This document shows positions 4,910-61,533 of a stretch of 64,000 bases of DNA, piece by piece. Below the pieces are notes generated by a model that was not told the DNA's origin, did no database searches, and was given only the letters and a program-made list of their open reading frames with translations. The stretch's first letter is position 1. The number at the start of each line of letters is the position of its first letter. Source of the DNA: Callorhinchus milii. Lineage: Eukaryota. The stretch covers positions 83,516,001 through 83,580,000 of the forward strand of contig NW_024704742.1 of NCBI RefSeq assembly GCF_018977255.1. Reading direction: 5' to 3'. The position numbers were made by a program, and so were the translations under genes.

Positions 4910-5110
<201 letters not shown>

Positions 5111-33861: not shown

Positions 33862-36009
33862 CTGATGAGAAAAAAATAAAAATTCCACAGGGTATTAGGC
33901 AAATCAGTGATGCCTAGATTTGTAAACACAATTTGCAACAAATCATCCTGCTGTATTTCATTATTCCACCAGTTAGAAACATAGGAGCAGTTTGGCTCAG
34001 TTGGTAGCACTCTCGCCTCTGGGTCACAAGGATTGTGGTTCAAGCCCCATGTTAATAATAATAATAATAATAATCCTTGCATTTGATATAGAGCCTCATC
34101 ACGTCTTCAAGGCCTCTCAAAGCGCTTCACAGAGTATACTGTAAAGTGAATTGACAGTATATTTTGAGCTACAGGTCTCCACGTGTTGGGATTAAGTTGA
34201 CAAATACTCCAGTTCAGTATAGTGGAAACACTGCCTTGTCTGAAGTGTTCCTTCTGTTTTTCACAAGCGATGCCAACCTGAGCTCTTGACTTCCTGTTCA
34301 GGTGGGCAATAAAGATCTCAAGACACTATTTAAAGAAAAATGAATTAAAACGAAATAAAATGGACCTTTGAATCATTAGAAAAAACTATTGACCAACAAA
34401 AGAAGGTATAATTTAGAGTAAACTAGATGCACATAAACATAAATTTGGCAGAATACCATTTGTTTTGAAATACCATACCATGGTAATTTGTTTAAATTGC
34501 ATAGTGCCAATATCATTATGATGACCTTTACTGATCAAGTAAATCAGATGATCTTTTCTGGGTAAAGGATGGCATGGATAAATTCTTAGCTTTCCATCTA
34601 ATCAATAGATTAAATTAGAACACAAGTAAAATTCCCAACATTCAATACACATCTATGTACTCCAATACCAGTCAAGTTCCCCACTTAAGTGTTCCCACTA
34701 CAACAGCTTGCATTTATATAGCCCCCTTCACACAGGGCAATGTCTCGGAGCGCTTAACAGTGGCAGAGCCTGGTCCTGGGGGGGAAGGAGGAACTGTTGG
34801 TACCGTATATTCAATAAATAATAAACTGAGCAGAGACTCCCTGTACATACTTCACTACATTTTTGAGCTGGATGTACTCTATGCTTGTCTCCAAATCTAT
34901 TCTTAATTTACCTTGGAAATAATTTCTTCACACCAAACCGCAATTAGAAGATGGGTGATAAGTTTTACAGATGATCACTGGACAGTCAGAATAAACACTA
35001 GGTTTAATGTATTTTTTATTCCAACTATGCAATGAAATTTTATCATTAAATTTCCATTTCTTGTTTACAGAATTATGAAAATAACCTTCCTATTTAAAAA
35101 ATTCTAATTATGATCCCAATGAAGATCAAATACTATTTCCCAAATGAAGCAATTTCTTGCACTATTTTATTAAACCAAATATTGTATGTTTTAATTCTCA
35201 ATAACATTTGCAAAGGACTACCAATGTTAATCCTGGTGTTTTCAACTTTGTATGATATTACAGATAAACTCTGGATGTCCTGGGAAAAACAGCTTTAAGG
35301 CTACAATTATATTCAAGAACATAATGGCACAAGTTGCAAATTACAGTCTTTTCAGTTATTGCAGTGAAATCTGATAGAAGATGTCAATGCTAGAAATATG
35401 TTTCACCTTTTGCCCACAGTCAGTATTTAACACTCAGATGTACCGGATAAATAACTAAGTTACTCATTTGGTACTATATATTCAAGGCGGATAAACAGTC
35501 AAATGCATTCCCATATTTTCATATACAGACCTTAATTTTATATTAGATAAAGTAATAATAATCTTTGCATTTGATATAGGGCCTTTTCACGTTGTTGAGA
35601 CGTCTCAAAACGCTTCACAAAATATATTGTGAAGTGGATTGACTTTGTGTTTTATGGATGAAATGTGGCAGCCAATTGTGCACAGCAGTGTCCCACAAAA
35701 TGTTATGGGTAGAGTGAACAATTTTTTTTAAAAAAAGGGATTATTACCCCCGAAAAGCAATCGGTGCCAGTCGACTAACATGTTTTGTTTATGTAGATAT
35801 ATATCAAAGATTCTTCAAAATACTGCTAAGAAAGTGAAGAGAGCCTACGCACATTATAGTAAACATTACAATGCAGAAGCAATGACTGGAGATTGTGCTC
35901 GCTTTCCAAGACTGGATAGCATTTTATGATCCCAATTACTACGCAATAATAAGGTTCTCCTCTATATAACAATTTGTTACTGGAGTGCAAAGAACCCTCT
36001 AATCATTAC

Positions 36010-36153
36010 CTTGGCAAGGCCAGCTCTGTGTGCACCTTGACACTCCATGCGTGCTATATATTTAGAGAAATGCTTGAATTCTTCCAGTGTAGGTTGAAAG
36101 GTCATAATTTTGCAAGCTGATTTTGAGGGAGAATTTGTATCTTCTGTAGCCAT
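36010..36153 (-). CDS. KDM4C: KDM4C coding exon A (exon spans 36179-36010), JmjN start: [48 protein letters not shown]
   Basis: Translation matches the KDM4 JmjN start (CKIMTF.P..EEF...GAHRAGLAK). Kozak gtcaccATGG, acceptor tttttag at 36180-36186, donor AAG|gtaatg; 144 coding nt. Confidence 0.95.
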
Positions 36154-37520
36154 GGTGACAGCAGCTCGACTCTTTTTTCCTAAAAAGATAAATGAAAAAA
36201 AAGTTATTGTTGTACCTACACAGATTAGAAATTACCATCTAGTTTTCACTGAACATTTAGGTATTTGGCAAAAAGTCCAAAACATTTCTTGGTCAAGATT
36301 TTAATCCAATATTTAATGATGTATATGTAAGATATACAGAGCTGGACACTAAGATATCATGTTTGGCCAATTGAACAATTTCAAACAGTAGAAATAGAAA
36401 CACACACTACCAACTTTGTAAACTGTTAAATGTTTCACAACTCCTTTTGCTAACCTGATCCGAAATGGTTAAAAGTGCTTCCAGAAAGATTTCTCTGTAT
36501 AATAGGTGCGAGAATATAGAATCTGTTATCTTAGAAGGTTACATATCAAGCACCAAATTGAGACATTGAAAAGGGGAGATGGAGAGTGATTTAGCAAGTA
36601 AGCCTTTTGAGGGATGTAAATGAAAAGATGCTAAAATTAGATGAAAAAAGGTTAAAGAGTTAGTATGCACAAATAACATCAAATAGGTTTATTCCATCCT
36701 TATAATCCTTCAAGTAAAACATATTTTGCTACGGATTTTGCTGCACTATTAGGACAGGTTGAAAATTTAATTCAGAAGAAAGTCAAACAAAAGTACCACA
36801 GTAATTGAAATTGGATCCAGTGTAGATATGAGGTCTCTGTGTGTTTCTCTCTCCCACTGGGTCTCTGTGTTGCCCACTTTGTGTGCAGACACACAACATT
36901 TTCATCTGACTTCAATTACTCATTAGAGTGCCAACAGGCAGATGTACAGATAAGCAGCATGTGAAAAGAGAGCAATCTACTTTTTTTTGTTACAAGTGTC
37001 ACAAATAGCAACTCCGGCCTTGTGTGTATATATATATAATATATAAAATAATATATACATAATTATTAAAAATACATTCCATTACAAAGGCCTCTTCTGA
37101 TATATTGCACTTACCATGCAGTGATCTGGAAGTAAATAATAATCCTTGCACATGACATGTTGGGGGGATGTCTTAAAGTACTTGGCAGGATTTACTGTAA
37201 ACTGCAGTAATTGTACTTTTTAAATGAATGCAGCCCACAAACAACTATGAAGTGAATGACCAATTTTCTCAGAGGTGAGAATGCTAAGATAATTAAGATA
37301 CCAAATGTCAAATTCACTTCAGTGGTGCCTCTTTGGTTTTGCCGCTAAAATTGTAACAAACCTTATACATTATGGAACCGCTTCACCATACACCACTTAC
37401 TCCACAATTAAAATTTGTATGTGTTCTGTGTGAAACATTATGTAACATTATGCACACTGACAGCGTATTCAATTAAGTCAATTTGCAGTCATAACTTCCA
37501 GTTGATGGCATGGTTTGGAT

Positions 37521-42933: not shown

Positions 42934-44120
42934 GGCACTGGGGGATAGAGATCCAGAGCCTCGGGGCTGAGAGGCTGAAGGCCCGGCCACCGATGGTAGG
43001 GCGGTTGGGGCGGGGGACGTGGAGCAGACCGGAGCCAGAGGAACGGAGGGTACGGGCAGGTAGGTAGGGGGATAGTAGGTTGGAGAGGTAGGAGGGAGCG
43101 AGGCCGTGAATGGCCTTGTAGGTGAGGATGAGGATCTTGAATTCGATCCTCTGGGGGTTGGGGAGCCAGTGGAGGCGAGCGAGGGTGGGAGTGATGTGGT
43201 CGCGGTGTCTGGTGCGGGACAGTACACGAGCTGCAGAGTTCTGAATGACCTGCAGCTTGTGGAGGGAGATGCCGGGAAGGCCGACGAGGAGAGAGTTCCC
43301 ATAGTCCAGCCTTGAGGTGATAAAGGCGTGGCCCAGAGTTGGACCAGAGTTGGAGCTGAGAGATAAGGAGTCGAGTGGGGATGGGGTCAAGGGAGCAGGT
43401 GGTGGGTTTCAGGGACAGGATGAGTTTGGTGACAGAGGGTGGGGAAACGGGTACAAAGATGTGCGGGGAGGATGGGTAGGAGTCGGATTGTGGGAGGGAG
43501 GGGGTGGGGGGTTGGTGGAAGTTGGAGGGGGAGTGACCGCGGAGCGAATTCCCTTGATTTTGGATTCAAGGAAATCCAGCATCTCCTCGCAGTGAAGGTT
43601 GGAGGAGATGACCTGCGCGGGGTGGCGGGGGGGACGGAGGAGTAGGGATGTGGTAGAAAACAGTAGCCTGGGGTTGTTCTTCGCCTCCAGGATTATCCTG
43701 GAGTAGAAGGACGATTTGGCCGAGGCTAGAGTGGAGCAGCAGATTTTGAGGAGGTCCAACCAGATTTGTCGGTGGACCATTAGGCCAGATTTGACGCAGG
43801 TGCGTTCAGCGGCCCGCACCTGGCTCTTCAGTGAGTGGAGGTGGGTGGTGAACCAGGGGGAGGAGCGGGAGTAGGAGACAGTACGGGTGGTGATGGGGGC
43901 AAGAGTGTCGAGTGTGGAGGAGAGGGTGTTGTGGAGGAGGATGAGAGGAGAAGAGGGGTCAGTGAGGGTTGAAGGCCAGAGGGAGAGGAGTTCAGAGGAC
44001 TCCAAGGCAGCGGTTAGGGATTGTGGGGGTAACTTCTTCCAGGGGCGGTAGAAGATGATGGTGGGTCTGGTGGAGGTGGGGAGGGGGGTGGAGGTGGTGA
44101 AGGAGATGAAGTGGTGATCG
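42934..44120 (-). mobile_element. L2 LINE subfamily A fragment with ~1-kb RT deletion and no 3' tail
   Basis: Aligns to 56346-57115 and 58097-58499 of the nested L2. Confidence 0.93.
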
Positions 44121-44154
44121 GAGCTCCAATACAATCAAAGCTCCAATACAATGC

Positions 44155-49633: not shown

Positions 49634-50089
49634 CCTCCCTGCCCGGCCTCCCCCCCCTCCCCCCCCCTGCCCTGCCTGCCCGACCCGGCCCTCCTGCCCT
49701 CCCCCCTCCCCTCCAGCCCTGCCTGCCCTCCCCTGCCCTGCCCTCCCTGCCCGGCCCTGCCCTCCCGGCCCCGCGCTGTGTTGTGTTGTGTCCCCGGGCT
49801 CCAGGCTCGGCCTTGCGGCGGTGCAGCCTTGGGTGCGGGCGGCTCGGGGAGGCCGGGCCCGGGCCCGGGTCCAGGCCACAGGGGGAGGGGAGGGGAGCGG
49901 AGCGGCCTCTTGTGTGTCTGTGTGTCGCCGGGACTCAAACGGCGGCCCCGCGCGGCCTCTCACCGGCAGCGCCGCCGCCGCCTCCCCCTCACCCCGGGCC
50001 CGAGTGACAGGAGGCGGCCACAGCGGCACCGAGAGAGCGGCGTCTGGACAACATGGACAGTGAGTAACAGCGGCTACTGCACTGCGATA
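49634..50089. promoter_or_regulatory. CpG island; probable KDM4C promoter/exon-1 region (orientation uncertain)
   Basis: The only very GC- and CpG-rich non-TE stretch, 13.5 kb upstream of an exon that begins with a splice acceptor. Candidate donors: gtgagt on + (50060) and gtgagg on - (49992). Confidence 0.75.
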
Positions 50090-53000: not shown

Positions 53001-53420
53001 ACCTACCCCACACCCCCCCTCAGCGCTCACCCCCGCCCTACCCACACACACCCGCCCTCACCCCCACACCCCGCGCCCCCTCAGCCCTCATCCCCCGCCC
53101 CACCTCAACCCTCACCACCACACACCCCGCGCCCCCTCATCCCTCACCCCCATACCCTCCTCCGCCCCCCTCAGCTCACCCCCACACCCCCCGTCCCCCT
53201 CAGCCCTCCCCCCACACGCCCCGCCACCCTCAGCCCTACCCCCACAAAGGCCCCGCCCCCTCTCAGCCCTCACCCCCACACAGCCCCCGCCCCACCCCCC
53301 TCAGCCCTCACCCCCACAGCCCCCTCCTCCCCACACACCTCCCCGCCCCACACCCCCGCCACCTCTCAGCCCTCCACCCCACACCCCTCCCCCGCCCTCA
53401 CACCACTCTCCCTCTCATTC
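50090..53420 (+). repeat. Degenerate CA/C-rich array, probably low-quality consensus, grading into ccccctcagc units
   Basis: Direct inspection; the first ~75 bp are the reverse complement of the GT-array motif. Confidence 0.9.
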
Positions 53421-53594
53421 ACTGACACTCTCTCTCACTGACACACTCACTTGTTGACACTCTTTCACTGACACTCTCTCACTGACTCACTCTCTCTCTG
53501 ACACTCTCTCTCACTGACACACTCTCCCTCACTGACACTCTCTCACTGATTCTCTTTCTCACTGACTCTCTCTCACACTGATACTCTCTCACTG
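53421..53594 (+). repeat. (ctct)ctcactgaca minisatellite, left part
   Basis: 14-18-bp units; same unit resumes at 59970. Confidence 0.9.
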
Positions 53595-54109
53595 AGAGTG
53601 TGTCAGTGAGAGCCCAGAGTGAGCTACGTCCGGAGTGAGGCGAGGCCAGAGTGTGAGGGAATTTGGTGAGAGTGGGAATTGCTGCTGTGAGTGTCGTGAG
53701 AACTGCTATCGTGAGCACATAACCCAATGTGTTGTTGTTGTTGTTGTTATTATTCAAGTCTTGTAGCAGTTGTTGTAGTTGTTTTAAGTATTGTGTTAGT
53801 TAAAATTGCTGATACCATTGGTACATTGGTCTTGTGGGGTAACTTTACAGGGATCAGCTGTAGCCGATAACAAGTAACTTATTGATTAACTTAACTTATT
53901 GATTAATCACTTGATTAGGTGTTAATTCCAAATCACTGCTGAGCAAATCAGAAACGGGTTGCACCCAGAATCTATAAATGGGAGATAGCTGCGAGAGCCC
54001 AGAGTGAGCTACGTCCGGAGTGAGGCGAGGCCAGAGTGCGAGGGAATTTGGTGAGAGGGGGAAGTGGGGGCAGGCTATATATCTTTGTATCTATGTAAAG
54101 ATTGTGAAG

Positions 54110-55135
54110 ATGGTGTGGCAGGTAAACTGCGAGGTCTGTCACATGTGGGAGTCGATGGAGGGCACCTTAAGCCCGGGCGACTTCATCTCCCGCAAGTGTC
54201 TGGAAATCAGGGAGCTTCAGCTGAGAGTAGCTGAGCTGGAAGCCCAGGTGCAAACACTGCGCTCCATCAGGGACAGTGAGAGGTTCCTGAACAGTATGGT
54301 GGAGGAGACCCTCACTCCCCTAGGACTCAGTGATAGCAGCCCATCACTGTATAGGAACCATGAGATAGGGGTATTGGAGCCATCGGGAGGTCAGAGTTCA
54401 GGAGCAGGACCACTCCCAGAGGAGCCCAACACACAGCCACATGCTAAAAGTGATTGGGTGACAGTGCGATGGGGAAAGAAGAGGGCTTATGCAAGGCAGA
54501 GCACCCCCAACAGAGTACCGGTCTCAAATCAGTACTCAGCATTAGCAATTGAGAGCGTGGAAACCTCCCATGAGGACAGCAGTGAACATTCTGTCCAACA
54601 GGACAGGGGCATGGATCACACGGGCAACACTGTTCTGATAGGGGATTCAACAGTGCGAGGCACTGACAAGATCTTCTGTCATAAGAATCGTAAGGCTAGG
54701 ATGGTTTGCTGCCTTCCTGGTGCGAGGGTAGTGGACTTTACCCAGCGTGTGGACAAGATTCTTCAGGGGGAAGGAGAATGTTCAGAAGTCGTGGTCCATG
54801 TGGGGACCTACGATATTGGGAAGAAGAGGGCTGAGATATTCCAGGGCGAGTATCAAAAATTGGGGAACAAACTCAAGGCCAGAACATCCAAGGTGGTGAT
54901 CTCTGGGTTACTCCCGGTGCCTCAGGCAACGGGGCACCATAATGAAAGGATCAGGCGTATGAATGACTGGCTGGAAAAATGGTCCAGAAAAGAAGGTTTC
55001 CGTTTTGTGGACAATTGGGACCACTACTGGGGGAGGTGGGATCATTACCTTGCGGATGGGCGGCACTTAAGCAAGGCAGGGGTTAGCTTCCTGGCCAAGA
55101 GATTATCGAATGCTGGGGGGGCTAATTTAAACTAG
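54110..55135 (+). CDS. CR1 ORF1p: Zn-finger/leucine zipper plus SGNH esterase (341 aa from ATG 54110), open frame
   Basis: CEVC..SRKC, heptads LQLRVAELEAQVQTL, then GDS, CLPGA, HVGTYD, DGRHL blocks typical of CR1/L2 esterase ORF1. Confidence 0.9.
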   Translation: MVWQVNCEVCHMWESMEGTLSPGDFISRKCLEIRELQLRVAELEAQVQTLRSIRDSERFLNSMVEETLTPLGLSDSSPSLYRNHEIGVLEPSGGQSSGAGPLPEEPNTQPHAKSDWVTVRWGKKRAYARQSTPNRVPVSNQYSALAIESVETSHEDSSEHSVQQDRGMDHTGNTVLIGDSTVRGTDKIFCHKNRKARMVCCLPGARVVDFTQRVDKILQGEGECSEVVVHVGTYDIGKKRAEIFQGEYQKLGNKLKARTSKVVISGLLPVPQATGHHNERIRRMNDWLEKWSRKEGFRFVDNWDHYWGRWDHYLADGRHLSKAGVSFLAKRLSNAGGANLN

Positions 55136-55383
55136 TGGTGAGGGGGGATGGGTATCTCAGGATAAACAATAGATTAGGGAATAGAGAAAAAAGACAAGTG
55201 GGAAATATAGAGCAGGTACATGTGGACAATTTCCTCAAATGCATGTACCTAAATGCACGTAGCTTAGGGAATAAGGTTGATGAGCTGCAGGTTCAACTGC
55301 CCGTAGGGGGTTACGATGTGGTAGTAATTGAGACATGGCTCAAGCCAGGACAGGAATGGGAGATAAATATTCCAGGGTATAAT
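55135..55383 (+). pseudogene. CR1 ORF2, N-terminal endonuclease part
   Basis: CMYLNARSLGNK...ETWLKPGQEWEINIPGYN, cut by the L2 insertion. Confidence 0.88.
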
Positions 55384-58300
55384 TTGACCCGAGCCCCCTC
55401 ACCCCCTCCCTCCTGCCCCCCTCCTCTCTCCCCCCATACCCTCCCCCCTCTGCATCTCTCCCGCTCTCTCCTCCTCTCTCTCCGTCCCTCTCGTCTTCTA
55501 TCCCCACTTGACCCTCCCACAACCTCCCTCTGTTCCAGCCTGGGAATCCTCCGCCGGGCTCACCGTGGCACTCGGCGTTGGCTGTCCAGCAGCAGCCACA
55601 CCGACTGCCCCATTCCCCACCACACTCGCCACCCACCCCGGACACAGACCCGGGGAGTCAACCTCTCCTCCCTTATCCCCATCCCCCCCACCCCTGCCTC
55701 ACAACCTGGACCCCCCTCCCCTCCCACACACCCTTCTGTCAACCGCTCCCTCCACATCGGACTGCAAAATGTCCGCTCCCTCTGCAACAAGGCCCTGGTC
55801 ATCAACGATCTCATCCTTGATGAGAACGTTGATATCATGGCCTTAACAGAAACCTGGCTCACCCCAGGCGACACCTTCCCCCTCACGGAGGCCACACCAC
55901 CCGGCTACACCTCCCACCACATCCCCCGCCCCAACCGCCGTGGCGGTGGTGTTGCCCTTATCTCAAGGACACCACTTGCCCTATCCCCTACTCCACTGGC
56001 TCTTTCCCCTCCTTTGAGCACCTCACCCTCTCCCACCCCTCATTCCTCTCCCTTAAAATCCTCCTCCTCTACCGGCCCCCTAAAACCTCTCCCACCTTCA
56101 TCTCTGACATTTCAACACTCCTCACATCTCTTTGCCTCTGCTCCGATCGCCTCATCATCCTGGGCGACTTTAACCTACACTTCACCCCCTCCTGCTCCAT
56201 CTCCACAGACTTCTCTTCCCTGCTCTCCTCACTCAACCTCTCCTTACACATAAACTCCCCCACTCACAGTCACGGCCACCCACTCGATTTGGTGATCACC
56301 CGGGGCCTCAGTGTCTCGGATGTCACTATTACCGACAAGGCCATCTCTGACCACTACTTCATCTCCTTCACCACCTCCACCCCCTCCCCACCTCCACCAG
56401 ACCCACCACCATCTTCTACCGCCCTTGGAAGAAGTTACCCCCACAATCCCTAACCGATGCCTTGGAGTCCTCTGAACTCCTCTCCCTCTGGCCTTCAACC
56501 CTCACCGACCCCTCTTCTCCTCTCTCCCTCCTCCACAATACCCTCTCCTCCACACTCGATACTCTTGCCCCCATCACTTCCCGCACTGTCTCCTACTCCC
56601 GCTCCTCCCCCTGGTACACCACCCACCTCCGCTCACTGAAAAGCCAGGTGCGGGCTGCTGAACGCACCTGTGTCAAATCTGGCCTAACGGTCCACCGACA
56701 AATCTGGCTGGACCTCCTCAAAATTTACCGCTCCACTCTAGCCTCGGCCAAGTCGTCCTTCTACTCCAGGATAATCCTGGAGGCGAAGAACAACCCCAGG
56801 CTACTGTTTTCCACCACAACCCGACTCCTCCGTCCCCCCCGCCACCCCGCGCAGGTCATCTCCTCCAACCTTCACTGCGAGGAGATGCTGGATTTCCTTG
56901 AATCCAAGATCAAGGGAATCCGCTCCGCGGTCACTTCCCCTCCAACTTCCACCCACCACCCACCCCTTCCCTCCCACACTCCGACTCCTACCCATCCTCC
57001 CCACACACCTTCGTACCCGTTTCCCCACCCTCTGTCACCAAACTCATCCTATCCCTAAAACCAACCACCTGCTCCCTTGACCCCATCCCCACTCCACTCC
57101 TTATCTCCCAGCTCCACTTTCTTGCCCCACATATCACTGACATCATCAACCTGTCCCTCTCCTCTGGCTCTGTCCCCATTCCATTAAAAACTGCCATCAT
57201 CACGCCCACCCTGAAAAAACCCTCCCTTGATGCGTCGCAGCTATCAAGCTACCGGCCCATCTCCAACCTCCCCTTTCTCTCCAAGGTCCTGGAAAGAGTT
57301 GTCGCCTCCCAACTGCGCTCTTTCCTTTCCACCCATTCACTTTTCGAACCCCTTCAGTCAGGTTTCCGTGCTGCCCATAGCACAGAAACTGCCCTGGTCA
57401 AGGTCACCAATGATATCCTGACCATCTGTGACCAGGGCTCCCTCTGCCTCCTCGTCCTCCTCGACCTATCGGCAGCATTCGATACGGTCGACCACGCTAT
57501 CCTACTCCACCGCTTGTCCTCCCACCTCAACCTTCAAGGCACTGTCCTTGAATGGTTTAGGTCGTACCTTTCTCACCGTCTTCACTTTGTCTCGACGAAT
57601 GGCTTCTCCTCCACCCCCCGCACTGTCTCATGTGGTGTCCCTCAGGGCTCTGTCCTCGGTCCCCTCCTCTTCACCCTCTATATGCTCCCCCTCGGTGACA
57701 TCATCCGCAGACATGGAGTTAACTTCCACATGTATGCGGATGACACCCAACTCTACCTTTCCTCCTCTACTCTCAACTCCACGACCACCGATGTCCTGAC
57801 AGCTGCCTGTCCGACATCGAGTCCTGGACGAGAGACAACTTTCTTCAGCTCAACGTGCGAAAAACCGAGGCCCTCCTGATTGGCTCACGTCAGCGCCTCC
57901 GCACCTCAGGCGCTGACACCATCAGCATCCAAGGCTGCACTCTCCACCTCTCAAAGCCAGTCAGGAACCTCGGCGTTTTGTTCGACCCTGAGCTGTCCTT
58001 TCTCCCTCACATCCGCACCACAACTGGCACCGCCTTCCATCACCTCCGGAACATCGCCAGACTACGGCACTACCTCACCCCTCACGCTGCTGAAACCCTG
58101 GTCCACGCCTTTGTCACCTCAAGGCTGGACTATGGGAACTCTCTCCTCGCCGGCCTTCCCGCCACCTCCCTCCACAAGCTGCAGGTCATTCAGAACTCTG
58201 CAGCTCGTGTACTGTCCCGCACCAGGCTTCGCGACCACATCACTCCCACCCTCGCTCGCCTCCACTGGCTCCCCATCCCCCAGAGGATTGATTTCAAGAT

Positions 58301-58724
58301 CCTCATCCTCACCTACAAGGCCATTCACGGCCTTGCTCCCTCCTACCTCTCCAACCTACTATCCCCCTACCTACCTGCCCGTACCCTCCGTTCCTCTGGC
58401 TCCGGTCTGCTCCACGTCCCCCGCCCCAACCGCCCTACCATCGGTGGTCGGGCCTTCAGCCTCTCAGCCCCCAGGCTCTGGAACTCTATCCCCCAGTGCC
58501 TTCGCCTTGCTTCCTCCCTTTCCTCCTTCAAGGCCGGTCTCAAAACCTTTCTCTTTGACCGAGCCTTCAGCTCCCCTCTCGACTCTCTTCCCCTCCTCGC
58601 TCCCTCCCTTCCCTCCCCTCACCATTTCCCCCTGCTCGGGTCATGACCCAACTGTGCAGCGCCTTGGGACGTCCTCCTGACGTGAAAGGCGCTTTATAAA
58701 TGGAATCTTGTTGTTGTTGTTGTT
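55384..58724 (+). mobile_element. Near full-length single-ORF L2 LINE (APE+RT) nested in CR1 ORF2
   Basis: TSD gtataat (55377-55383, 58725-58731); [34 protein letters not shown] motifs; 3' stem-loop and (TTG)n tail; four 1-bp deletions and no in-frame stops. Confidence 0.95.
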
Positions 58725-58731
58725 GTATAAT

Positions 58732-59970
58732 GTGTTCAGGAAGGATAGAGAAGGAAGAAAGGGTGGAGGGGTGGCAATATTAGTTAAGGATACAATTGTA
58801 GCTGTAGAAAGGGACGAGACTCTAGAGGGCCCGACAACAGAATCGATCTGGTTAGACGTCAGAAATAGGAAAGGAGTGGTTACACTGATAGGGGTTTACT
58901 ATAGAGCACCAGACAGCGGGAAGGAGATAGAGGAGCAGATCTGCAACCAGATCACGGACAGATGTAGGGCCAACAGAGTTGTCATAATGGGGGATTTCAA
59001 TTATTCCAATATAGATTGGCAAAATAGCAGCGTTAAGGGCAAGGCAGGAGAAAGATTCATCAACTGTGTACAGGAAAATTTTCTTGAGCAGTATGTCTCC
59101 AGTCCTACAAGGAAGGAAGCATTGTTGGATCTTGTCCTAGGGAATGAAATAGGTCAGGTTGAACAAGTTTCGGTAGGGGAGCATCTAGGTAACAGTGACC
59201 ATAATATTATTAGATTTAGATTACTCATGAACAAGGACAAAGTACAGTCAAGGGTGAAAATGCTTGACTGGAAAAGAGCTAATTTTGATGGGCTAAAGAG
59301 GGACCTAGAGTTGGTGGACTGGCAAGTAAGAATGGCGGGTAAAACGACTCATGAGCAATGGGAAATCTTCAAAGATACGATAGCTCAGGGTCTAAATAGA
59401 TATATTCCTACAAAAGGGAAATGTGCGAGAACCAAGCCTGCTTGGATGACCAGGGATATTCTGTCTAGGATGAAAAAGAAGAAGATGGCGAACGACAATT
59501 GGCGGATGCAAGACACTGAGGATAGCAAAGCGCATTATAGAGAATGCAGGAGTGGTCTTAAAAGAGCGATAAGACAGGCTAAAAGATCTCATGAGAAGAG
59601 GTTAGCGGGTAACATAAAGGGGAATCCTAAAATATTTTATAAGCACATAAAGGAAAAAAGGTTAGTTAAAGGTAGGGTGGGGCCAATCAAAGACGATGAC
59701 GGCAATCTTGTTATGGAGGCAGAGGGCTGATGTACTCCACGAGTACTTTGCATCTGTCTTCACAACGGAAATGGATGCCCCAAATGCCGCAGTATTGGAT
59801 GAGAGGGTAGAGGACTTAGATCAGATTACTATAGACAGAGAGGAAGTTCTGAAAAGATTGACTGGGCTCAAAATTGATAAGTCACCCGGACCAGATGGGT
59901 TTCACCCGAGGTCGCTGTGGGAGATACCGGTTCAAATAGCGGAGGCTTTGGCCATTATATTTCAATCGTC
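58732..59970 (+). pseudogene. CR1 ORF2 continuation (rest of endonuclease, linker, start of RT)
   Basis: VFRKDREGRKGGGVAIL continues PGYN exactly; frameshift near 59728; ends at ...IIFQSSL. Confidence 0.9.
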
Positions 59971-60900
59971 TCTCACTGACACACTCTCTCACTGAAACTC
60001 TCTCTCACTGACACTCTCTCATTGACACTCTCTCACTGACACACTCTCTCACTGACACACTCTCTCACTGACACACTCTCTCACTGACACACTCTCTCAC
60101 TGACACACTCTCTCACTGACACACTCTCTCACTGACACACTCTCTCACTGACACTCACTCACTGACACTCTCTCACTGACACACTCTCTCACTGACACTC
60201 TCTCTCACTGACACTCTCTCTCACTGACACTCTCTCTCACTGACACTCTCTCTCACTGACACTCACTCATTGACACTCTCTCACTGACACTCTCTCTCAC
60301 TGACACTCTCTCTCACTGACACTCTCTCTCACTGACTCTCTCACTGACTCTCTCACTGACACTCTCTCTCACTGACACACACTCTCTCACTTATTGACAC
60401 TCTCACTCACTGACACTCACTGACTCTCTCTCACTGACACACTCTCTCACACTCTCTCACTGACACACTCTCACTCACTGACACTTTCTCACTTACCCTC
60501 TCACTGATCCCTCTCACTGACCCCCCTCCTCACTGACACCTCTCACTGACACCTCTCACTGACACCTCTCACTGACCCCACCTCCTCACTGAGCCCCCTT
60601 ATTGCCTCCCCATTTCCCCCTCACTGACCCCCCTCACAGAACCCCCCTCACAGAACCTCCCTCCTCACTGAGCCCCCTCACTGACTCCCCCCTGACTCCC
60701 ACCTCCTGACTACCCCCTCTCTGACTCCCCCCTCACTGACCCCCCTTATCACTGACCCCCCTTTCTCACTGAACCCCCTCCTCACTGACCCCCTCCTTAC
60801 TGACCCTTTCCCTGACTCCCCCCTCACTGACCCTCCCCTTCACTGACCCACCTCACTGTTTTCCCTGTCACTGCCCCCCAACCCACACACTGACTCCTCC
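59970..60900 (+). repeat. (ctct)ctcactgaca minisatellite, right part, grading into cccctcactgac units
   Basis: Direct inspection. Confidence 0.92.
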
Positions 60901-61209: not shown

Positions 61210-61533
61210 TAATAATACTAATAATGATAATAATCCTTGCATTTGATATAGCGCTTTTCATGTCTTCTAGACGTCTCAAAGCGCTTCACAGAATGTACTG
61301 TAAAGTGAATTGACTGTACATTTGTGGGCGAAGCGCGGCAGCCAATTGCGCACAGCAGTGTCCCACAAACAGTTGTGGATTGAAGTGACCAATTTATCAT
61401 TATTATTTTTCTTGGGGGATTATTATCAGGAATATGGAGTAAGGAAACTTGCCCAAGGTTTTGTCCTGCCGGGAATCGAACCCAGGTCTCTCACTTGCGA
61501 GGCGAGTGCTCTAACCACTGAGCTATAGACTCC
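61210..61533 (-). mobile_element. tRNA-derived SINE, full length
   Basis: Near-identical to the 41518 and 44543 copies. Confidence 0.92.

Follow-up and report, generated by a model that had tools for sequence, protein, structure and literature searches.

Vertebrate CR1 elements have, or cluster with, first open reading frames (ORF1s) that encode an esterase, and chondrichthyan L2 elements lack an ORF1 (Stuart et al. 2026, PMC13343379). L2 sub-clades also vary in ORF1 content (bioRxiv 10.1101/788562). The patchy spread of the esterase ORF1 has been ascribed to movement of the ORF1 from one lineage to another (Metcalfe and Casane 2014, PMC4120745) or, on the opposite view, taken mainly as repeated loss (Stuart et al. 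2026, PMC13343379). Two proposals describe how elements could exchange ORF1s. A 5′-truncated long interspersed nuclear element (LINE) landing between the ORF1 and ORF2 of another LINE would give a hybrid (Metcalfe and Casane 2014, PMC4120745), and ORF1s might be exchanged by "mutual cross-insertion" (Schneider et al. 2013, PMC3905857). In the literature that we searched, with most subscription papers outside the search, we found proposals of this route and no worked locus. Here we describe an L2 element lying inside ORF2 of a CR1 element, behind an open esterase ORF1, in the chimaera Callorhinchus milii. The window analysed was a stretch of 64,000 nt (assembly GCF_018977255.1, contig NW_024704742.1, positions 83,516,001 to 83,580,000 of the forward strand). 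Judged from its sequence, the layout is that of the proposed ORF1-swapping intermediate, by a cross-insertion route already in print in 2013-2014. The locus itself is quite probably a single dead nested insertion.

The chimaera genome contains 12.7% L2 and 5.8% CR1 (PMC13343379, supplementary table 4). Therefore, nesting of the two is expected, although it is less usual for an L2 of almost full length to lie in phase directly after an ORF1. The family CalMil_L2-1 has a consensus of 3,882 nt and a top ORF of 1,128 amino acids, and ORF2 is intact in 141 of its 326 long copies. For CalMil_CR1-1a, 1b and 2, intact ORF2s were reported in 0 of 9, 0 of 28 and 0 of 20 copies. The pipeline behind this catalogue discarded chimeric seeds and clusters under ten (all PMC13343379). 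L2 elements integrate by tail priming, with target-site duplications (TSDs) peaking at 3-5 bp and frequent 5′ truncation (PMC4245944), and their ORF2 protein binds the cognate stem-loop through a region between the endonuclease and the reverse transcriptase (RT) (PMC4176376).

Like our insert, CalMil_L2-1 has a single ORF for an apurinic/apyrimidinic endonuclease (APE) and RT, without ORF1; unlike it, the insert is 5′-truncated, has four frame breaks as written and carries CR1 sequence at its head. The leader, ORF1 and ORF1/ORF2 boundary of the host match the first 400 nt of CalMil_CR1-1a, 1b and 2 by eye. The host differs in being split by the L2 and in lacking the RT, the 3′ tail, a zinc-motif Cys and the oxyanion Asn. 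A working chimera would have the layout of ZfL2-1: an esterase ORF1 (PDB 4C1B), APE-RT and a cognate stem-loop tail. ZfL2-2 and UnaL2 are single-ORF L2s. Our locus is laid out like ZfL2-1. However, ZfL2-1 has an ORF1 of its own and forms a multi-copy family competent for retrotransposition, whereas here the ORF1 is CR1-derived, the start of ORF2 is a CR1 fragment, and any activity is hypothetical. On every property that would mark an active chimeric family, the locus either falls short or gives no verdict. The published proposals also have a 5′-truncated LINE behind the ORF1 of another LINE, giving a hybrid layout, but they place the insertion between the ORFs and leave the incoming ORF2 complete. 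Here the L2 landed 47 codons into ORF2 and its own ATG was lost. Therefore, this locus depends on an in-frame fusion.

Layout and identity of the L2 insert

With one TSD copy, the insert accounts for 3,348 nt and lies in the sense orientation in CR1 ORF2 (Table 1). When it was removed, the CR1 frame ran through PGYN-VFRKDR for 418 codons without a stop. The chance of a 7-mer match at a fixed place is about 1e-4 by composition. The right TSD copy begins with G or GT that overlaps the (TTG)6 tail, and a 7-nt TSD with a tail overlap of 1-2 nt fits the TSD range of the L2 clade. A first-pass annotation of the window had placed a 3.34-kb L2 with a 7-bp TSD in CR1 ORF2 behind an open esterase ORF1, and had read one stop-free frame from the CR1 endonuclease motifs through the L2 N-terminal extension into the L2 endonuclease. 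We recovered all of these features. The frame is open from 55126 to 56253 across the 5′ junction, from CR1 NARSL, ETWL and PGYN through the L2 extension to the L2 endonuclease. The TSD flanks only the L2, not the whole chimera, and CR1 restarts in frame at 58732. As CR1 resumes in frame after the L2 tail, behind the TSD, the locus is a primary insertion and not a mobilised chimera.

We compared the window with contigs from four sequencing runs: X1 and X3, whose type is unrecorded and which are genome-like in size, and X7 and X9, which we guess to be RNA. The contig pieces considered were those listed for the window, with a further 78,097 beyond them. Differences between window and contigs refer to the best-supported 40 of 135 rows, 20 of which fall in the CR1 head. 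Rare variants are dropped in contigs, and short contigs with a gap are under-represented. One X9 contig of 232 nt (depth 68) extends over 55248-55377 and continues directly at 58726, which is empty-site CR1; a loose end of X1 at 58726 is empty-site CR1 as well. No contig bridging the L2 junctions was found among the pieces listed. It might be supposed that the CR1/L2 block was misjoined within the satellite during assembly. In agreement with that, the block has the same 16-bp satellite on both sides (one end with an inverted unit), lies 4 kb from a 25-N gap and has junctions unbridged by the listed pieces, and an artefact could explain the satellite ends of CR1 more easily than nesting. However, a perfect TSD, the tail overlap and the in-phase resumption of CR1 are unlike a mis-join, and we give this explanation the least credence of those considered.

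Table 1. Features of the nested CR1/L2 block and its borders (window coordinates).
Feature	Position	Strand	Remark
16-bp satellite	53419..53595	+	5′ of CR1; inverted unit forms 5′ junction, about 53586-53613
CR1 5′ leader	53608..54109	+	
CR1 ORF1, 341 amino acids, SGNH esterase	54110..55135	+	Pfam PF13472, 4C1B match
CR1 ORF2, initial 47 codons from first in-frame ATG; endonuclease NARSL, ETWL motifs	55243..55383	+	
TSD GTATAAT, left copy	55377..55383	+	
L2 element, 3,341 nt, 44% C, about 540 nt of 5′ end missing	55384..58724	+	
L2 ORF remnant: N-terminal extension, APE endonuclease, tail-binding region, RT, C-terminal part	55384..58646	+	
cTBR-like tail-binding motif	56609..56671	+	spacing as in ZfL2-2
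L2 3′ stem-loop	58658..58693	+	
(TTG)6 tail	58708..58725	+	last G is first base of right TSD
TSD GTATAAT, right copy	58725..58731	+	
Remainder of CR1 ORF2 (endonuclease, linker)	58732..59968	+	ends before RT domain
16-bp satellite, same as upstream one	59969..60570	+	abuts cut CR1 end
Head positions with family letters	54189, 54366, 54374, 54839, 54859, 54964, 55187		seven positions in the CR1 head

A Pfam scan of eight proteins from the window found PF03372/PF14529 and then PF00078 in one reading path of the insert. Endonuclease domains were present in both elements, and the RT domain in the insert alone. Six full-length relatives align along the entire coding path of the insert, with 48-58% identity over the RT. 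Among solved structures, a search with the RT returned those of R2, L1 and group II introns and no others. The 3′ stem-loop has a folding energy of -19.8 kcal/mol (z -3.1; 2 of 200 shuffles were as good), and its word occurs in five near-identical copies in the window, compared with none in 100 shuffles. The cTBR-like motif keeps three of the four named residues (P, W and E) at the ZfL2-2 spacing and has Cys at the place of W344, as does a neighbouring L2 copy. That neighbour (43340-44123 and 42934-43340, minus strand) lacks an internal part that corresponds to insert positions 57117-58093.

In-frame ATGs occur at 55243, in CR1, and at 55837, and there is none in the L2 piece ahead of its endonuclease. 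The insert ORF has 1,088 codons compared with 1,128 in CalMil_L2-1, so 40 are missing, and overall it is 541 nt short. The L2 thus lost its 5′ untranslated region (UTR), its ATG and about 40 codons, and the CR1 head supplies 47 codons with an ATG. We considered a CUG start at 55450, prompted by a Met 25-34 residues before the extension motif in 15 of 23 relatives, and rejected it because the ATG of the published consensus lies further upstream. The family consensus sequences (PMC13343379, supplement) were compared by eye over the first 400 nt of each. A 10-mer of the insert at 55386 also occurs in CalMil_L2-2, about 120 nt past the first ATG of that consensus, but otherwise the two are only loosely alike; by elimination and length, CalMil_L2-1 is the likelier family. 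The insert differs from run contigs at no position over 115 and 152 nt and at three over 190 nt. As these differences are few, the insert is young. In 360 alignment columns it has six private letters, and two neighbouring copies have seven and four.

The following course of events would produce this layout. A CR1 copy with an esterase ORF1 would have come first, residing in a satellite array. RNA of the abundant, ORF1-less L2 family would then have been copied into it by target-primed reverse transcription, the mechanism established for L2. The endonuclease would have nicked CR1 ORF2 47 codons in, with the (TTG)n tail priming at the G or GT match; synthesis would have halted about 540 nt before the 5′ end of L2, and repair would have left the 7-nt duplication. 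Sense orientation and phase would have aligned fortuitously, for which a random insertion has a probability of about 1 in 6. Stops are scarce in the C-rich L2 extension. The ORF1 has decayed, and we infer that the locus is inactive and has founded no family.

Frame breaks in the L2 reading frame

Alignment of the six relatives with the insert falls into five consecutive pieces; the frame changes near 55984, 56379, 56998 and 57802, and the coding path has no internal stop. This agrees with the four 1-bp losses in a stop-free ORF given by the first-pass annotation, which had read at least three of them as a C lost from a C run. That reading extended to all four: contigs of all four runs carry one extra C at each of these sites, and also at 58589 and 58627 in the 3′UTR, so that all six L2 indels are 1-nt C-run contractions. 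The extra C in contigs reflects the form of the family rather than that of the locus itself. In the sequence as written, translation from the ATG at 55243 stops after 336 amino acids.

The first-pass annotation had suggested that the losses may be consensus errors. Several facts favour that interpretation and count against a dead insertion. Uniform 1-nt contractions of C runs without stops are the pattern of long-read consensus error, and the longer C run was found in neighbouring copies at two of three testable sites (56379 and 58589). As contigs of the four runs carry the extra C, errors are possible. However, a second L2 copy (43351-44123, minus strand, 94% identity) keeps the longer C run at 56379, whereas across 56998 it matches the insert in length, so that one or more of the breaks in the L2 frame are probably genuine. 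Some real indels are also expected in an insert that has six private letters in 360 columns.

If the C losses were errors, all four of them, and the junction phase were true, the locus might be an intact founder that has not spread. RNA from the CR1 leader would then encode an ORF2 protein that recognises the L2 tail, and the locus would be uncopied or rarely copied. The error-like indels, the lack of stops, the youth of the insert, and the intact stem-loop and tail are what such a founder would show, and AATAAA is absent from 53600-58731. The 47 CR1 codons would replace the roughly 40 lost from L2, and ORF2 is intact in 141 of 326 long CalMil_L2-1 copies (PMC13343379). There is also the 25-N gap 4 kb upstream. 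Gaps of this kind may mark gap-filled, lower-quality sequence. However, the loss at 56998 is common to the second copy, in which the C6 run is read correctly. Of the listed one-base losses shared across runs, none falls in 81 C/G runs of the CR1 parts and six fall in 152 of L2 (Fisher test, P = 0.09). If the losses are errors, they affect 5 of 23 long C runs downstream. Five C runs separate the junction from the first conserved L2 motif, and at the error rate implied the chance that all are right is only about 0.3. Therefore, to treat the losses as errors makes the in-frame junction itself doubtful. No indel was listed between the junction and the first L2 motif, which favours the phase, though X9 barely covers this part. 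The damage to ORF1 and four short out-of-frame ATG frames at 55110-55239, ahead of the ORF2 ATG, also speak against an intact founder. We regard it as unlikely, although it is the strongest competitor of the dead nested insertion.

Two other interpretations of the breaks were tried. Programmed frameshifting was rejected because the breaks are at four separate sites, and by eye there is no canonical slippery heptamer at 56998. A split ORF throughout the family was suggested by CalMil_L2-2, which has 0 of 92 intact copies and a top ORF of 593 amino acids, near half length (PMC13343379), and by the rarity of the extra C at 56998 in the genome-like runs. It was set aside, as the insert is only loosely like CalMil_L2-2 and gapped short contigs are under-represented. 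At 56998, in the linker between endonuclease and RT, the extra C makes up 14 of 41,334 and 11 of 40,244 of the depth in the genome-like runs (0.03%), and 39-62% of the depth in the runs guessed to be RNA. This pattern may be an alignment effect, or might reflect a frameshifted L2 sub-lineage copied in trans, with a rarer intact form expressed.

The CR1 head and the search for copies

The CR1 leader contains a 74-nt segment repeated 385 nt apart (53608-53681 and 53993-54066, 96% identity). It has TATAAA at 53973, ATTGG at 53817 and 53825, and three short upstream ATG frames. By eye, these leader words are also present within the first 400 nt of CalMil_CR1-2. We take the leader to be a putative promoter. 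CR1 starts at the first 74-nt copy, and the TATA word stands 20 nt ahead of the second, an arrangement to be expected of a tandem-promoter design.

ORF1 encodes an SGNH esterase (PF13472, E = 1.9e-10; the ZfL2-1 esterase 4C1B, E = 7.5e-23), and its catalytic Ser180, Asp316 and His319 are kept. The best named relatives are C. milii SGNH proteins (55% and 43% identity), followed by shark and ray proteins (42 matches). One predicted C. milii eIF4E-transporter model (P0076) starts with a piece of CR1 ORF1, which is probably a gene-model or exonisation event. Two changes fall on important residues. In the CxxC...CxxC zinc motif, Cys27 is Ser, whereas Cys is present in all 32 homologues covering the position and its letter makes up 98-100% of the covering depth in all four runs. 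Asn234 is Tyr; 33 of 40 homologues have Asn, none has Tyr, and the nearest relative has His. Tyr234 aligns with Asn195 of ZfL2-1, which lines the oxyanion hole (PMC3905857). Ten of the 14 listed ORF1 rows, after exclusion of four found only in X9, comprise seven amino-acid changes and three silent ones. The neutral expectation for the share of amino-acid changes is 0.72, and thus the ratio of 7:3 is as neutral drift predicts. ORF1 is damaged and has decayed. On the other side, ORF1 of ZfL2-1 is dispensable in HeLa cells (PMC3905857), so damage to ORF1 need not stop mobility, and this also counts against a dead locus.

CR1 ORF2 is 3 nt shorter near 55317 than in one X9 contig and has a frame change near 59727. 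Recognisable motifs lie downstream of that change. Pfam found no RT in the last CR1 frame, and no continuation of CR1 was found elsewhere in the window, with ORF2 cut at 59968. The same satellite stands on both sides of the CR1 block; one of its units is inverted where it meets the 5′ end, and a short word is common to both sequences at the 3′ cut. This arrangement suggests that the RT half was removed by repair or by recombination with the satellite array.

We also considered whether a chimeric family has spread, with CR1-head/L2-body RNAs copied elsewhere by their own ORF2 protein or in trans by intact L2 proteins binding the common 3′ tail, so that the esterase ORF1 entered an ORF1-less L2 lineage. 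The cognate stem-loop is bound by L2 ORF2 (PMC4176376), so for mobilisation in trans it would be enough that the RNA is transcribed. Moreover, the matching CR1 families have no intact ORF2, and an L2 body would be a way for their ORF1 to keep moving. Against this, 7 of the 20 listed rows in the CR1 head have a non-window letter in at least 94% of the depth in all four runs (Table 1). Progeny of the locus would share the letters of its head, but the contigs carry family letters, which argues against many copies only. A chimera of few copies would escape the contig data, and to that extent the reading of a single dead insertion is weakened. The two L2 consensus sequences of the catalogue are not CR1-like in their first 400 nt by eye, although its pipeline dropped chimeric seeds (PMC13343379). 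No CR1-type start ahead of the L2 extension was found in any of 184 related proteins (34 and 150 from two protein searches); two flagged cases were an internal duplication and a mis-paired match. A spread family is thus very improbable. One related protein of 497 amino acids (P0079) has a whole L2-like endonuclease and then a second endonuclease start in frame. In-frame LINE-in-LINE or tandem joins therefore do occur elsewhere.

X9 depth was 0.2 and 0.95 in the first two L2 bins compared with 12-112 over the CR1 head, a thin cover that we did not use as evidence. Neither did we use the gap in cover of X1 and X3, which have no contig over 55300-55329. Summed depth in the first L2 bin was 22,939 (X1) and 16,687 (X3), compared with 344-1,633 and 85-1,241 in the CR1 head bins, and these values give no copy number. 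An exact look-up of four translations in the protein collection matched none of the four. The 24-nt junction had no match in metagenome contigs, and of 352 pattern hits with the L2 N-terminal peptide none was a confirmed locus; as these collections are of an unsuitable kind, we draw no evidence from either result.

The first-pass annotation had proposed the locus as a route by which a single-ORF L2 could acquire a foreign ORF1. The geometry fits this even better than had been stated, as 47 CR1 codons stand in for about 40 of L2, but competence and spread found no support. Competence at this locus is opposed by the four breaks as written, the damaged ORF1, the resumption of CR1 after the tail and the family letters over the head. 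Function would require that the CR1 promoter is live, that translation re-initiates at 55243 beyond the four short out-of-frame ATG frames, that a 47-residue fragment of the endonuclease is tolerated, and that every one of the four breaks is an error. For the locus to have founded a real CR1-head/L2-body lineage, the losses would have to be errors or be bypassed in trans, the leader be transcribed through to the tail, and copies of the junction exist elsewhere. We consider this highly unlikely.

Implications and surroundings of the locus

The locus shows that an intermediate of the proposed kind does form, here from two young families of a single genome, and it could serve as a natural template to ask if an L2 ORF2 functions after a CR1 head. 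A lone dead copy is uninformative on whether such hybrids spread. A chimera that had spread would directly attest to the passage of an ORF1 from one clade to another. If the locus were the founder of a lineage, a chimaera L2 would have been caught gaining an esterase ORF1 from a CR1 family without a working ORF2 of its own.

Elsewhere in the window, Pfam found JmjC and JmjN exons at 4910-5110 and 35980-36231 on the minus strand. From the translation, we presume that they belong to a KDM4/JMJD2-like demethylase gene. The GC-rich segment at 49634-50075 may be the promoter of this gene; the CR1/L2 block would then lie 3.5-10 kb upstream on the other strand. Between 48378 and 52956, (GT)n and (CA)n arrays face each other across the 25-N gap and a GC-rich island, and the local assembly quality is uncertain. 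The sole Rfam match was tRNA-like (61462-61530, minus strand; RF00005, 46.7 bits) and is probably the head of a short interspersed nuclear element.

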